Positions 1 to 60,423 of a DNA stretch of 64,000 bases are shown one piece after another. How positions within the stretch are numbered: position 1 is the stretch's first letter; each line of letters begins with the position of its first letter. Below the pieces are notes generated by a model, which saw nothing but the letters and a program-made list of their open reading frames with translations, was not told where the DNA came from and did not search any database. The stretch spans positions 1-64,000 of the forward strand of contig CAZWEM010000015.1 in the NCBI GenBank assembly GCA_964632315.1. Reading direction: 5' to 3'. Source of the DNA: an uncultured archaeon. Its GTDB lineage: Archaea; Asgardarchaeota; Lokiarchaeia; Sigyniarchaeales; SOKP01. A program made the position numbers and the translations under genes.

Positions 1-1628
1 TCTTCTACAGTTTGCTGTAATTCACCATTTTCTTTTGATAAATACTCATCAACTGCCATGATATTCGTGCCCAAATTAACTTGTTTAGCGGTTTCTTTTG
101 CGATTGCGATATGATCGCCGGTTATCATTTTTACATTTATTCCCATAGATTGAGCAGTTTTTATAGTTTCAGCGGAATCTTCTCGTGGAGGATCAAATAA
201 TGCAATTAAACCGACGAAAATCCAATCTCCATTCCCATTTGTTTTTGCCACTCCTAGGGCTCGATATCCTTTTGATGCAAAATCGTCGACGTAATGATTA
301 ATTGTTTCCGTAGATTTTATATCAGAAAGGAGAGCTAGTATGACTTGAGGCGCTCCTTTTGAGACTTTATAGCATTCTGTAGTCGATTCCGTCTTATCAT
401 CATTTGCATCACAGACAGTCTCAATATCTGCTTCTGTTCTTTTTTTTACTGGATCGAACGGTCTAAACTTTAAAACATTACATTTTTTTAACTCATCGGG
501 CTCGGAAGAATACTTTCTCAATTCGTTGATGATAGCACAGTCTATTGGATCCTGATTTTCTTCTTTAGAAGCTAATGTAGCATAGCTTAAGACATCTTTT
601 TCGGTAAAATCAGAAAATGGGATTACCTTACCAATCGTGAGTTCATTTTTTGTAATAGTACCGGTTTTATCGGAACAAAGTACATCCATGCTTGCCATTT
701 CTTCAATTGCTACTAGTTTACTTACAATTGCTTCTTTTTTTGCCAATGCCATTGCACCGATAGCCATGGTTACTGATAAAACAGCAGGTAAAGCTGCAGG
801 TATTCCAGAAACAGTTAGGATTAAAGCAAATTGCAAAGTTTGTAGTATGCTTTCTTGTCTAATGGTTGCTACAACGAAAATAGCTAAAACAATTACAATC
901 GCTAATGTAATTAAATAATTTCCGATTTTCATTATGGCTTTTTGGAAGTGGCTTCTTGTTTTGGATGATTCCATTAGTTTTGTCGTTTTCCCAAAAAAAG
1001 TGTGTAGACCAGTTCCGCATACAGCACCAACCATTTCACCTTGCTTCACGATTGCTCCCGCATATTCATCATCTAAAGAATGTTTTTCAACGGGTAATGA
1101 TTCGCCGGTTAACATGGATTCATCCACTAATAAATAGTCTCCTTCAATGAGTTTAATATCTGCAGGAACAATATCTCCAAGTCGTACTCGTATAATATCT
1201 CCGGGGACTAATTCTCTCGCCGGAATTAAGCTCCATTTATTATCTCTTAGGACTCTAGCGTTAATAGCTAATCGTTCTTTCAACAATTCAATTGCGTTAT
1301 CTGCTTTATGCTCCTCCCAAAATCGAATTACAGCGTTTAACATTAGCAATGCGAAAATGATCCAGAAATCATCCCATTGTTGATCGATCAGAGACATTAT
1401 AACTGCTGCTTCGATCATCCATGGGATTGGACCCCAAAAATTCTTTAAAAAGTTAATGAGCGGGCTTTTCTTTTTCTCTGGAATCTCATTTGGACCGAAC
1501 TTTTCAAGTCTTTCGGTCGCGTTGGAAGTTGTCAGTCCGTTCTTACTACTTGATAAACTTGCTAAAATTTTATATGCATCTTCATCAGATACTTCTGATG
1601 ATACAGTTTCTAAGCACGTATGAATCAC
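1..1628 (-). CDS. P-type ATPase, type IIIA plasma-membrane H+-efflux family (5' part; runs off window start)
   Basis: Manual translation: GLTTSNATERLEKFGPNEI, LTGES, CSDKTGT phosphorylation motif, KGAPQ, DPPR, MITGD. Not in the ORF track. GTG at 1628 is the first start after an in-frame TGA. Confidence 0.9.
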   Translation of the reverse strand, partial: MIHTCLETVSSEVSDEDAYKILASLSSSKNGLTTSNATERLEKFGPNEIPEKKKSPLINFLKNFWGPIPWMIEAAVIMSLIDQQWDDFWIIFALLMLNAVIRFWEEHKADNAIELLKERLAINARVLRDNKWSLIPARELVPGDIIRVRLGDIVPADIKLIEGDYLLVDESMLTGESLPVEKHSLDDEYAGAIVKQGEMVGAVCGTGLHTFFGKTTKLMESSKTRSHFQKAIMKIGNYLITLAIVIVLAIFVVATIRQESILQTLQFALILTVSGIPAALPAVLSVTMAIGAMALAKKEAIVSKLVAIEEMASMDVLCSDKTGTITKNELTIGKVIPFSDFTEKDVLSYATLASKEENQDPIDCAIINELRKYSSEPDELKKCNVLKFRPFDPVKKRTEADIETVCDANDDKTESTTECYKVSKGAPQVILALLSDIKSTETINHYVDDFASKGYRALGVAKTNGNGDWIFVGLIALFDPPREDSAETIKTAQSMGINVKMITGDHIAIAKETAKQVNLGTNIMAVDEYLSKENGELQQTVE

Positions 1629-9410: not shown

Positions 9411-10328
9411 ATGTCGGAAGGATCGTTGCAATCCTATATTTTAGCGGGTAAAGCTGTAATAGCCGCTAAAAAATTAGCAAAGAAAATTGTAAAACCAGGA
9501 GTTTCATTACTAAGTATAGCAAATCAATGTGAAGAAGAGATATTAAAGAACGATTGCGAATTGTCATTTCCAATTAATTTATCTTTAAATGAGATTGCTG
9601 CTCATTATAGTCCTCCTATTGGAGATCAATCAATTGTACCAGAGCAAGGGCTGCTTAAAGTTGATGTTGGTTCACATCATAATGGTTACATTGCGGATTC
9701 TGCTTTTACTATAAATATAGATGAAGATCCAACTTTACAAAATTACATTGAAGCAGCCAAAGAGGCTTTAAGTTCGGCTATTGAATTATTTCGACCCGGT
9801 ATAAGATTATATGAAATTGGAGAGGTTATTGCAAATAGAATCATTAACCGAGGATTGCGACCTATCATCAATCTTGGAGGCCATGAGTTAAAAAAATATA
9901 ATCTACATGCGGGTCCTTTTGTTCCTAATTATAAAGATACTCGCCATAATGAAGAGATAAAGCCAGGGCAAGCTTTTGCCTGCGAACCATTCGCTACTTC
10001 TGGAGTTGGCAAAGTAACAAATGGAAAATATTCTTACATCTATAGATTTCTACGTAAGATCACAAAAAATATTTCATATGAAGATCAGGTATATATGAAT
10101 AAGATTGAGGAATACACTAATAAATTACCATTCTCACCTCGATTTATTTTAAAAAGTGGGATTATCCCTGAAAATAAAATTAAAAGAACCATAGATTCAT
10201 TTGTGAGAAAAAAAATTTTAGATCATTACCCCTTACTAATTGAACAGTCAGAAGCTTTAGTTGCTCAAGAGGAGCATACAATAGTCATCGATTTGGATGG
10301 TAATACAATTGTTACAACAAAAGAATAA
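9411..10328 (+). CDS. map: methionine aminopeptidase type II
   Basis: FPINLSLNEIAAHYSP, KVDVG..HNGYIADSA, GGH, EPFAT, QEEHT. Confidence 0.96.
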   Translation: MSEGSLQSYILAGKAVIAAKKLAKKIVKPGVSLLSIANQCEEEILKNDCELSFPINLSLNEIAAHYSPPIGDQSIVPEQGLLKVDVGSHHNGYIADSAFTINIDEDPTLQNYIEAAKEALSSAIELFRPGIRLYEIGEVIANRIINRGLRPIINLGGHELKKYNLHAGPFVPNYKDTRHNEEIKPGQAFACEPFATSGVGKVTNGKYSYIYRFLRKITKNISYEDQVYMNKIEEYTNKLPFSPRFILKSGIIPENKIKRTIDSFVRKKILDHYPLLIEQSEALVAQEEHTIVIDLDGNTIVTTKE

Positions 10329-10329
10329 T

Positions 10330-11160
10330 ATTGAGAAAGAGATAATCTCTATAATATTATGTGCTGGAAAAGGGACTAGAATAGCCCAGAAATATACATC
10401 TATTCCTAAAACACTAATAAAAGTGAAAAATTTTGATGACAAACCTATTTTAGAAATACTTCTCGATAGATTGAATAAAATTGCTAATATCAACCAAAAT
10501 TGGATCGTGATAGGATATCTTGGACCAAAAATTAAATCCTACATTAATAGCCTAATTTCACATGACAAAATAACGAAAAATAAGATTAGAGTTATAAATG
10601 CAATTGAAGATTATGAAAAAGGTCCACTTTATTCTCTATTAAGCGTCCTATCTACTAAGGGGATCAATTCTAATCAATCTTATTTAATTATTCCTGGGGA
10701 TACTATTTTTGAAATTGAAATTCTATTAGAAGCTTCGAAAATAATAAAAAATCATAATTCAAAAAGGCCTCTTATTTTTTATCAAGCTTTAAATGATACG
10801 GAATTCAAAAAAAAAATAAAATCTGCTAAAACTGTTAGGATTATAGAAACTTCAACAAAATATGAGAATTCTAATTCTATAGAAATATTAAACAAATTTT
10901 ATGATAAAATTAAGATTTCAGATTTAAACATAAGAACATTTAAACAAGTCGTGCCAATTTTTGCATTAGATTATGATTTTTTACTACTATTAGCTAATCT
11001 TGCGCCAAAATTAAATACGAATACAATATACGAAGCACTTAATGTGATTAAAAAAGATTATCAAATCCAAGCATATAAAATTGAGACGAGTGGGAAATTC
11101 TTTGATATAGATACTGAAACTGATTTAAAGAATTTAAATAAAAAAAAAAGTGGACAATAG
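10330..11160 (+). CDS. nucleotidyltransferase (NTP_transferase family)
   Basis: IILCAGKGTRI..PKTL, C-terminal DIDTETDL. Start is either ATG 10297 (overlapping map) or ATT 10330. Confidence 0.8.
   Translation: MEKEIISIILCAGKGTRIAQKYTSIPKTLIKVKNFDDKPILEILLDRLNKIANINQNWIVIGYLGPKIKSYINSLISHDKITKNKIRVINAIEDYEKGPLYSLLSVLSTKGINSNQSYLIIPGDTIFEIEILLEASKIIKNHNSKRPLIFYQALNDTEFKKKIKSAKTVRIIETSTKYENSNSIEILNKFYDKIKISDLNIRTFKQVVPIFALDYDFLLLLANLAPKLNTNTIYEALNVIKKDYQIQAYKIETSGKFFDIDTETDLKNLNKKKSGQ
11140..11149 (-). terminator. oligo-T terminator of the candidate ncRNA
   Basis: T10 run on the minus strand 1 nt after the terminal helix. Confidence 0.55.
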
Positions 11161-11603
11161 TAGCTCCGAAATCATAGTTTTTTTGTGTCTACGGAACTAC
11201 TCTAAACCCCATCGAAGCATATATTAGAATTGGCTCCTATTGAAATGTTCTATCCCATTGTAAAAAAGTACAATGATTTGTTTGTCTCGTGTATCAAAAA
11301 TATACCTACATCAACAAGAGCTCGAGTATTACTGCCTCTATTTTGGATGGTTTTTTGTTTACCTTTAGTTTCTTTAAATGTATATTAATCTATAACCTGT
11401 AAACCTTTATAGAAACTACTTCAAGTTATAACTAAATGGATAATTCACTTGATATTGAATATAAAATAACATTTGGGTTCTAGGCAACGTTGTTTATAAA
11501 AAAAATATCCCGGCTTCAATCAAAAAAATGATCGCAACTTAATCGTTGTATAAACCGTATGATTGTTTTCCTAAACCAATGCAAAGACAATTACTATTGT
11601 CCA
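11151..11603 (-). ncRNA. candidate large structured non-coding RNA, family unrecognised (~453 nt)
   Basis: 12-bp terminal complementarity 11151-11162/11592-11603; at least 8 internal helices whose G-U pairs favour the minus strand; upstream TATA box, downstream T-tract; no ORF >=60 aa. Confidence 0.7.
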
Positions 11604-11625
11604 AATACTATTATACCCATTAGCC

Positions 11626-11640
11626 TATTTAAATGTTTTT
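11626..11640 (-). promoter_or_regulatory. BRE/TATA promoter of the candidate ncRNA
   Basis: Minus-strand AAAAACA-TTTAAATA ends 22 nt upstream of the predicted 5' end (11603), matching archaeal spacing. Confidence 0.6.
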
Positions 11641-11733
11641 ATTAAATAGTAAAATCTATTTCCAATATTCACAATAATAGCAAGCATTTTTTTGAAATAA
11701 TATAAATATTGGTGATAATATTATTAATAAAGT

Positions 11734-12132
11734 ATGTTTAATAGTGGAGAAATAGCCATTAAAATCGATCTTTTTGGAATTGGCTCGGTGAAGGCAATAA
11801 TTCATAGACATTTAAGTCCTTTAAGTGCAGATGCAATTCTAGATAAAATGCCTTTTATAATGCGAGGACGCTTTAATTTTGGTTCGAAAGATTATTGGTC
11901 ACTTCCGGGGATAGGAATTTTAAAAGGATTGAACACTAAATCAACGAGGACAGTAAAAAAAGGAGATATTATTTATAATCCTAAAAGTGATGAATTAGTT
12001 GTCCTTTTGGAGGATCGCGAAATGCCAAATAAGGTGAATTTAATAGGACAGATTACTAAAAATCTTGATTTATTTTTGCAGGCTAGAAGTGGACTTAATA
12101 CAAAATTTACTCGAATAAGATCAAAAAAGTAA
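11734..12132 (+). CDS. cyclophilin-like fold protein (TM1367/DUF369-like)
   Basis: RHLSPLSADAILDKMPF, VKKGDIIYNP, VNLIGQI. Confidence 0.7.
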   Translation: MFNSGEIAIKIDLFGIGSVKAIIHRHLSPLSADAILDKMPFIMRGRFNFGSKDYWSLPGIGILKGLNTKSTRTVKKGDIIYNPKSDELVVLLEDREMPNKVNLIGQITKNLDLFLQARSGLNTKFTRIRSKK

Positions 12133-60319: not shown

Positions 60320-60423
60320 TGGGAGGGGAGGGATTCGAACCCCCGACCACTTGGCCCCCAGCCAATTCGATCCAGTTTAAAGACAATAAACTGGCGTATC
60401 ATACCAAGCTAGACCACCCTCCC
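60320..60423 (-). tRNA. tRNA-Pro(GGG) with 30-nt intron at 27/28 (60366-60395)
   Basis: Acceptor stem GGGAGGG/CCCTCCC, spliced anticodon arm CTTGG-CTGGGGG-CCAAG, T loop TTCGAAT; 74 nt mature; CCA not encoded. Confidence 0.92.

Follow-up and report, generated by a model that had tools for sequence, protein, structure and literature searches.

Metagenomics has brought to light several large or exceptionally abundant, structured and lineage-restricted RNAs in bacteria, including OLE (RF01071), GOLLD (RF01998), ROOL, raiA and IMES-1 to -4, which are conspicuous in environmental RNA data and whose functions were unknown when they were discovered. Bacterial orphan RNAs such as 6S, OLE, ROOL and GOLLD each opened up new biology. 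No known prokaryotes are more closely related to eukaryotes than the Asgard archaea, and to our knowledge the Asgard repertoire of non-coding RNAs (ncRNAs) is almost unexplored beyond rRNA, tRNA, RNase P RNA and signal recognition particle (SRP) RNA. Here we characterize an RNA gene of 453 nucleotides (nt) at positions 11151-11603, on the minus strand, of a 64,000-nt stretch of DNA from an uncultured member of the Lokiarchaeia (contig CAZWEM010000015.1; this whole stretch is referred to as the window). The gene lies in a gap in the open reading frames (ORFs) between an NTP-transferase gene and a cyclophilin-like gene. A first-pass annotation of the window had proposed an undescribed large Asgard ncRNA gene on this strand; its promoter, conserved gene order, covariation, presence among RNA contigs and lack of any Rfam match all agree with that proposal, and we consider it likely that the locus encodes a stable, structured ncRNA of a new, undescribed family.

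This RNA (hereafter Loki RNA) can be likened to the ornate orphan RNAs OLE, GOLLD, ROOL, raiA and IMES in being large, structured, restricted to one lineage and conspicuous among environmental RNA sequences. It differs from them in showing no sequence or model similarity to any of them, in being archaeal, with an archaeal promoter and an oligo-T terminator, and in having a much less conserved interior. A second point of comparison is Y RNA (RF00019), together with the bacterial Yrl RNAs. Here the likeness lies in a helix between the 5′ and 3′ ends that is the most conserved part in sequence, above a variable interior, and in an abundant small stable RNA made from a dedicated strong promoter and finished with an oligo-U end; the same working model of an end-reading protein could apply to both. 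By contrast, Loki RNA is four to six times longer, lacks an Rfam match and has no bulged-C Ro site that we could see. A search for the TROVE domain of Ro60 (PF05731) gave no match at E ≤ 0.01 in the host genome, which is 99.5% complete, under conditions in which control searches of Deinococcus radiodurans and Bacteroides thetaiotaomicron were positive. Because the genome has no TROVE/Ro60 gene and the RNA has no Rfam Y_RNA match, assignment to the Y RNA/Ro60 class fails; by analogy Loki RNA may work like a Y RNA, without being a member of that family.

The features that define the gene and its conserved end are as follows (window coordinate = 11604 - p for RNA position p).

11634 to 11645, minus strand: purine-rich block ttaataaaaaca resembling a B recognition element (BRE), directly upstream of the TATA box
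11626 to 11633, minus strand: TATA box TTTAAATA, ending 22 nt before RNA base 1
11151 to 11603, minus strand: RNA gene, 453 nt, with ends set by promoter spacing, terminal helix and terminator
11592 to 11603, minus strand: 5′ arm UGGACAAUAGUA of the terminal helix P1 (RNA 1-12), pairing with RNA 442-453
11151 to 11162, minus strand: 3′ arm UACUAUUGUCCA of P1 (RNA 442-453), the exact complement of the first 12 bases
11140 to 11149, minus strand: T10 terminator tract, beginning one C after the last paired base
11574 to 11582, minus strand: box A GCAUUGGUU (RNA 22-30), the sole internal block kept in every genus of the family
11237 to 11242, minus strand: internal CAAUAG (RNA 362-367), a second copy of the 5′-arm core that could form an alternative helix, P1′
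11163 to 11236, minus strand: 3′ hairpin domain (RNA 368-441), immediately followed by the 3′ arm of P1

The perfect 12-bp inverted pair reported earlier to bracket the ORF gap is present, with both arms as listed. Without mismatch, the arm 12-mer occurs at only these two places in the window; with at most one mismatch, 0.33 chance matches would be expected there. The proposed minus-strand promoter 22 nt before the 5′ end and the T10 tract after the 3′ end are likewise recovered, and both are conserved. A TATA box precedes the gene in all 91 homologs with readable flanks, 79 of which carry TTTAAATA itself, and in 86 of the 91 the distance from the end of the box to the GGA of the 5′ arm is 22-24 nt. 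The BRE-like block persists in homolog flanks as ttaataaNaaca or aaga, and a run of at least five T residues lies no more than 15 nt from the 3′ end or arm in 90/91 homologs. Because of this TATA-to-GGA spacing, transcription is predicted to start at or beside the first helix base, so that the transcript would begin and end flush with P1. The element is therefore a gene with its own transcription unit, comprising a BRE/TATA promoter, an RNA of ~453 nt and an oligo-T terminator.

The gene is not protein-coding. No ORF of 40 or more amino acids lies on the RNA strand inside the element, each reading frame contains 7-12 stops in the window copy (7-16 across the four copies checked, counting both strands), and the longest sense-strand ORF has a median length of 28 amino acids. 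The lengths of the homologs show no preference for any remainder modulo 3.

We collected more than 90 homologs of 345-632 nt from genomes and metagenomes of Promethearchaeota/Lokiarchaeia, including 59 distinct full-length sequences of 345-518 nt found by BLAST on relatives and by pattern scans of species genomes and metagenomes. The true pattern-scan matches fall in species genomes titled Promethearchaeota or Promethearchaeia, with a few titled Hermod- or Odinarchaeota. Following the NTP-transferase-cyclophilin neighborhood across relatives, a check proposed with the first-pass annotation, showed fixed synteny: gene order is identical in 58/58 homolog loci checked. With neighbors called by their Pfam names, this order is AspRS, methionine aminopeptidase, NTP-transferase, the RNA (opposite strand), cyclophilin-like, membrane protein, Alba and JAB/MPN (opposite strand). 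The two genes that flank the RNA gene in the window are:

10297 to 11160, plus strand: NTP-transferase gene, on the 3′ side of the RNA gene and convergent with it
11734 to 12132, plus strand: cyclophilin-like gene, the other flank of the gap

Between homolog genomes the adjacent NTP-transferase is 29-38% identical in protein sequence (~33%), whereas the two arms of P1 hardly vary. The 4.45-Mb host genome contains the element once, and the RNA gene is single-copy and vertically inherited.

At its convergent end, the NTP-transferase gene finishes with GGA CAA TAG (Gly-Gln-stop) inside the RNA 3′ arm, in the interval 11140-11160, and a Lys-Lys-Lys near the protein C-terminus is encoded by the complement of the T10 terminator. 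About 21 nt thus serve both genes. The overlap is kept in homolog loci, where the last 6-7 nt of the protein matches lie within the RNA gene.

For a systematic survey we used R1, a covariance model of the last ~218 nt of the RNA, against which the 3′ half of the window copy scores 102.6 bits. R1 matches 92 of the 151 genomes of the order, once per genome except for two with a second match. All matches fall within a single family, f1 (genus g1, 37/41 genomes; g12, 48/53; g16, 5/8; g23, 1/1), with zero in families f2-f4. Diverged versions of 362-632 nt occupy the syntenic gap in genera g13, g14 and g15, and a further one was found by pattern match in g17; these retain only the promoter, the terminal helix, a GCAUUGG box a few bases past the 5′ arm and the T-tract. 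Two single-contig (closed) f2 genomes contain a cyclophilin-like gene without a comparable neighborhood, and the RNA was not found in them. Elsewhere in the phylum, the pattern GGAYAATAG-N1-16-GCATTGG occurs in 14 genomes. We regard these as chance matches: 13 of the 13 inspected lack the promoter, the complementary 3′ arm and the T-tract alike, and several resemble coding sequence. As far as we searched, the RNA is confined to one family of Lokiarchaeia (Promethearchaeota).

What the whole family keeps is the promoter, the terminal helix GGAYAAUAG/CUAUURUCC, the adjacent GCAUUGG box and the terminator, so that the most diverged genera retain only P1 and box A within the RNA itself. The CAUUGG of box A is invariant in the first 11 homologs collected and is kept, with one or two single-base variants, in g1, g12-g17 and g23; no internal pairing partner for it is consistent among clades. 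Across 82 homologs, P1 pairs 2-10 are nearly invariant. Pair 11 is U-A in 65 sequences, G-C in 7, A-U in 4, U-G in 3 and G-U in 2; pair 5 is C-G in 78, U-G in 3 and U-A in 1; and pair 1 is U-A in 70 and A-U in 2. Genera g14, g16, g17 and g23 add further helix-preserving changes, including GGAUAAUAG with CUAUUAUCC, and one diverged version of P1 extends to 16 bp with a U-G pair. U-A and U-G variants are found in distant genera.

The 3′ domain provides the second body of evidence for a conserved fold. Its consensus consists of P2 (GCUUUGAU/AUCGGAGC), which directly abuts the P1 3′ arm, followed by P3, a pair of short inner helices and, at the apex, a GGA/UCC stem (UUCAUUGGA/UCCUUUGAA). When 87 distinct sequences were aligned to R1, 85% of the cells in the 3′ half were paired, compared with 32-52% when the partners were slid, and the covariation score was 0.140, compared with 0.035-0.061 for slid partners and with none of 500 shuffles as high. 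In alignment A3, helices 4-8 have 75-97% of cells paired and show changes on both sides in 12 of 20 pairs. P1 and the 3′ domain are thus supported by compensatory changes, seen at P1 pairs 1, 5 and 11 and in the 3′ half, which bears on the covariation check that had been suggested for this locus.

The same domain identifies the RNA strand. Two U-G pairs of P2 are kept in 84/87 and 76/87 sequences, and on the other strand these would be C-A mismatches, which argues that the minus strand is transcribed and bears out the earlier remark that the G-U wobbles fit this strand only. Predicted folding energies are -98.8 kcal/mol for the minus strand (z = -3.05, with 0/100 shuffles as good) and -83.2 kcal/mol for the plus strand (z = -2.34). 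The G+C content of the element is not above that of its flanks, so composition gives no help.

Six RNA libraries contain part of this stretch. Four of them, metatranscriptomes of marine sediment, salt marsh and wetland from three studies, were placed on positions 10701-12100 as contigs rather than reads. Their contigs cover 11156-11593 only, with zero cover on the flanks that serve as a silent control (10701-11123 on the NTP-transferase side, and 11594-12100), and a single contig spans 11234-11574. In two libraries of ~49 million letters, word depths reach thousands to tens of thousands; these values add up contigs from related species and are no basis for ranking genes, or regions within one gene, against each other. 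We conclude that RNA libraries contain the RNA in plenty and that its extent there agrees with the predicted borders.

Two features of these contigs are recorded here as side observations. Word depth varies ~1000-fold along the gene (window 11171-11593), being highest at 11265-11358, which holds boxes B and C described below, and lowest at 11500-11593; cross-mapping from relatives or processing into shorter stable species could each cause such unevenness. In addition, low-depth contigs from two runs join RNA position 448 (window 11156) to a variant-like sequence of RNA ~249-275, a join that chimera formation, template switching or a rearranged form of the RNA could explain.

These data bear on whether there is an RNA feature here at all. 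The gap might instead hold a DNA inverted repeat (a remnant of a miniature inverted-repeat transposable element (MITE) or other transposon, origin boxes or paired operators), untranslated space flanking its neighbors, or an RNA cis-antisense to the NTP-transferase gene. Such readings draw on the perfect 12-bp inverted repeat that brackets an AT-rich gap, on arms almost invariant in sequence, on the ~21-nt overlap of the 3′ end with the NTP-transferase stop codon and tail, and on the absence of G+C enrichment over the flanks. We nevertheless judge them highly improbable: compensatory and wobble changes in the arms fit a minus-strand RNA helix, a minus-strand promoter and terminator stand at fixed spacing, and the RNA contigs stop at the gene borders rather than running into the flanking genes. 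The MITE/transposon possibility, which had been singled out for checking, is rejected specifically. The genome holds one copy, the locus is the same wherever checked, the flanks are not duplicated, and the arm motif shows neither dispersed copies nor enrichment (in the genome, GGACAATAG plus its complement add up to 16 occurrences, compared with a median of 25.5 for permuted words).

We also compared the element with known RNA classes. At Rfam gathering thresholds, the whole window yields tRNA only. A permissive scan of 10900-11900 returned just two chance matches (E of 6.6-8.9), with none on the element at E ≤ 10, and 11 homologs gave no match at E ≤ 1. A literature search found no description of the RNA. 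The first-pass annotation had noted that the element lacks the consensus motifs of RNase P, SRP RNA, transfer-messenger RNA (tmRNA) and introns.

In size class, in a terminal helix formed by both ends, in multi-domain fold and in abundance, Loki RNA resembles RNase P RNA (RF00373) and RNase MRP RNA (RF00030), and the first-pass annotation had called its topology RNase P/MRP-like. This likeness is not supported. The 5′/3′ pseudoknots on which it drew are species-specific, the element matches no RNase P or MRP model, has no conserved P4-type pseudoknot and is limited to one family, and a canonical RNase P RNA lies on another contig of the host genome (C17:8122-8448; 139.7 bits, E = 5.7e-41). The conserved architecture, a terminal helix stacked on a long 3′ hairpin with a variable middle, also differs from that of RNase P. 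SRP (7S) RNA (RF01857) is similarly abundant and stable, a few hundred bases long with paired ends, and usually prominent in RNA libraries. Unlike it, Loki RNA gives no model match and shows no helix-8-type motif in its alignments, and two SRP-like RNAs lie elsewhere in the host genome (C78:7260-7522, E = 8.7e-17; C64:12560-12796, E = 1.2e-12), so that archaeal SRP RNA is likewise rejected. The check for RNase P RNA and SRP RNA elsewhere in the genome thus located both on other contigs.

The two SRP-like matches score 75.4 and 59.7 bits, both below the Rfam curated cut-off of 96.5. The host genome is rated 8.6% contaminated, and one of the two may come from a second strain.

Could the element still be a universal RNA (RNase P/MRP RNA, SRP RNA, a piece of rRNA or a tmRNA-like molecule) so diverged that the models miss it? 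Its terminal 5′/3′ helix, size and abundance are in the expected range, and the sub-threshold SRP scores leave some room for it. Set against these are the RNase P and SRP-like RNAs found elsewhere, the negative Rfam searches of both the element and its homologs, and its confinement to one family of one order, which together make this reading very improbable. A U3-like, C/D-box guide for 16S processing is also rejected for lack of support from pre-rRNA complementarity. Boxes A-D of the homolog in a congener (G008), compared with its 16S gene and ~550-nt flanks, did no better than shuffled boxes (z = +0.6 to +1.6), and visual inspection of the alignments showed no conserved C/D box pair. No rRNA genes are assembled in the host genome.

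Between the conserved end and the 3′ domain, the RNA is far more variable. Its internal features in the window copy are:

11511 to 11557, minus strand: 5′ stem CGGUUU/AAGCCG (RNA 47-52/88-93)
RNA 56-59/66-69, minus strand: CAAC/GUUG hairpin inside the 5′ stem
RNA 70-87, minus strand: species-specific hairpin with a U6 loop, also inside the 5′ stem
11498 to 11505, minus strand: U8 tract (RNA 99-106), which in most relatives is the loop of a CUGG/CCAG hairpin
11342 to 11497, minus strand: variable central domain (RNA about 107-262)
11283 to 11323, minus strand: conserved core of g1, g12, g16 and g23, with boxes B and C and a U5 tract
RNA 281-293, minus strand: box B GAGCUCUUGUUGA
RNA 304-308, minus strand: U5 tract in a hairpin loop
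RNA 311-321, minus strand: box C UACACGAGACA
11256 to 11275, minus strand: hairpin CAUUGUA/UACAAUG (RNA 329-348), pairing at 7/7 positions here

All helices listed in the first-pass annotation do pair in the window copy, from 6/6 to 12/12 positions, with CUAGAACCCA/UGGGGUUUAG at 9/10. As drawn, only P1 and CAAC/GUUG are kept among 81 homologs, in an alignment that is not structure-aware in the variable middle. The four long-range or pseudoknot pairings also proposed can form in the window copy and, like most of the internal helices, are kept in 0-1 of the 81 homologs, making them species-specific. The sequence of CAUUGUA/UACAAUG is likewise not kept, and relatives carry other sequence there. 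Toward the 5′ end, relatives have an ACAAC/GUUGU hairpin within an outer stem, as well as a CUGG/CCAG hairpin whose loop is rich in U; read by eye, the equivalents of the 5′ stem are CAAUUU/AAAUUG or CGGAUU/AGUUCG.

The central domain ranges from ~0 to 250 nt among homologs, and versions of 345 and 358 nt do without most of it. Its helices in the window, including UCAAGU/ACUUGA and UAGUUUCU/AGAAACUA, are specific to this species. Boxes B and C form invariant columns in the alignments of g1, g12, g16 and g23 and can pair with each other as UCUC.UGU/ACA.GAGA; in this helix, the second of alignment A3, 86% of cells pair and most of the variation falls on one side. The stem flanking the U5 loop reads by eye as GAGUA..UACUC or GUGUA..UACAC, depending on the homolog. 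Neither the box B/C core nor the 3′-domain sequence is recognisable in g13-g15.

Searches for additional shared helices in this region returned little. A mutual-information scan found only isolated pairs besides P1 pair 11, with clade effects dominating and no new long-range helix. RNAalifold on full-length MAFFT alignments recovered P1 and the 3′ domain alone, the middle being too variable to align across clades, and on the 5′ 123 nt it returned no fold.

Many homologs, for example those at L013:1187-1681 and L226, contain a central long-range helix, GUUCC..UAGUGC/GCACU..GGAGC, that is not in the window copy. The RNA contains two or three occurrences each of GGAGC and CAUUGG, hinting at duplication of internal modules.

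How might such an RNA work? In ribozymes the internal core is the most conserved part, and in Y RNAs a protein reads the terminal stem. Family-wide selection on Loki RNA keeps the closed end and GCAUUGG while the interior drifts and changes size, which leads us to favor a ribonucleoprotein (RNP) over a ribozyme. On the evidence of these sequence patterns, the RNA may be part of an RNP with its closed end as the loading platform, a proposal on which we find the arguments about evenly balanced. P1 (GGAYAAUAG/CUAUURUCC) and the adjacent, apparently unpaired GCAUUGG would form a platform read by a family-specific protein, and closure of the end would protect both termini, which would explain the stability of the RNA. 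Sm-like proteins bind U-rich tracts, and hairpin loops rich in U may be additional, secondary sites of protein contact. The middle would then act as a tolerant, size-variable scaffold.

That the RNA is itself a catalytic subunit is suggested by its size, abundance and multi-helix architecture, and by boxes B and C, which are strongly conserved and unpaired in four genera. We think this improbable, as a catalytic core should be the last part to drift and yet boxes B and C and the 3′-domain sequence cannot be recognised in g13-g15; nor did we find a conserved pseudoknot or an Rfam ribozyme match.

The internal copy of the 5′-arm core raises the question of a second state at the conserved end. 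This copy, which the first-pass annotation did not mention, places AAUAG immediately 5′ of P2 in about 70 of the 82 homologs. In an RNAalifold consensus fold computed without the 5′ end, it pairs with the 3′ arm and extends P2. All three blocks have changed in parallel in g16, to UAGAAG (internal copy), AAUAGAAGC (5′ arm) and GCUUCUAUU (3′ arm). More speculatively, the internal AAUAG could take over the 3′ arm, so that a closed form would alternate with an open form with a free 5′ end. We treat such a switch as a possibility and not a finding, because P1, with its 11-12 bp, should be the more stable form and because the internal copy is not in all clades: it is missing in one, and none was seen by eye in one g15 sequence.

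A two-state end is also central to a different reading, in which Loki RNA is a trans-acting base-pairing RNA (a regulator or sponge) whose open form frees the 5′ GGACAAUAG and box A for targets. The complementarity of the 3′ arm to both the 5′ end and the internal AAUAG, the parallel change of the three blocks in g16, and an invariant box A without a conserved internal partner are all in keeping with this idea. It is nonetheless unlikely, since P1 should outcompete an alternative of 5-6 bp and the internal AAUAG is not universal. The genome also shows no excess of GGACAATAG sites over permuted words, and boxes A-D gained nothing over shuffles against the congener pre-16S region. Returning to the RNP, a more ambitious version, which we put forward tentatively as possible, would make the RNA the core of an abundant particle specific to this Asgard family, with a standing like that of SRP, RNase P, Ro/Y or vault particles, its end a loading site and the AAUAG switch gating its activity.

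Several observations weigh against a stable, protein-loaded ncRNA. The 5′ hairpins, although 77% of their cells are paired compared with 28-48% when slid, show no significant covariation on the alignment used. The window species has a weak version of the consensus P2 and could form GUAGUUCCG/CGGAGCUAC (RNA 404-412/436-444), a competing hairpin common to only 7/81 homologs, in one small clade. The RNA evidence consists of contigs, and thus carries no strand, exact ends or true abundance; the 5′ third has a much lower word depth than the middle, which could mean processing into shorter species; and the conserved internal U tracts of 5-9 could stop archaeal transcription early. The conserved neighborhood offers no obvious RNA-binding partner: an Alba gene lies 1.5 kb from the RNA gene, but the whole block is syntenic. 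Finally, the RNA is absent from cultured Asgard species.

One whole family of Lokiarchaeia keeps a large RNA at a fixed locus under strong selection. The conservation of its arms despite drift of the neighboring protein, together with the high word depth in sediment RNA libraries, makes a role in a central cell function likely. Defined gene borders, more than 90 sequences, a fold partly supported by covariation and a candidate platform for recognition make the family a clear target for further work, and its entry in RNA family databases would end its annotation as an empty gap or as spurious small ORFs.

Two minor observations concern other RNA genes. In the congener G008 (C3:13600-23600, L282), 16S lies at L282:1257-2746 with no 23S within ~7 kb downstream, so the rRNA genes appear to be unlinked. 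Within the window, the tRNA match at 60320-60423 on the minus strand measures 104 nt against a 71-position model and probably bears an intron.

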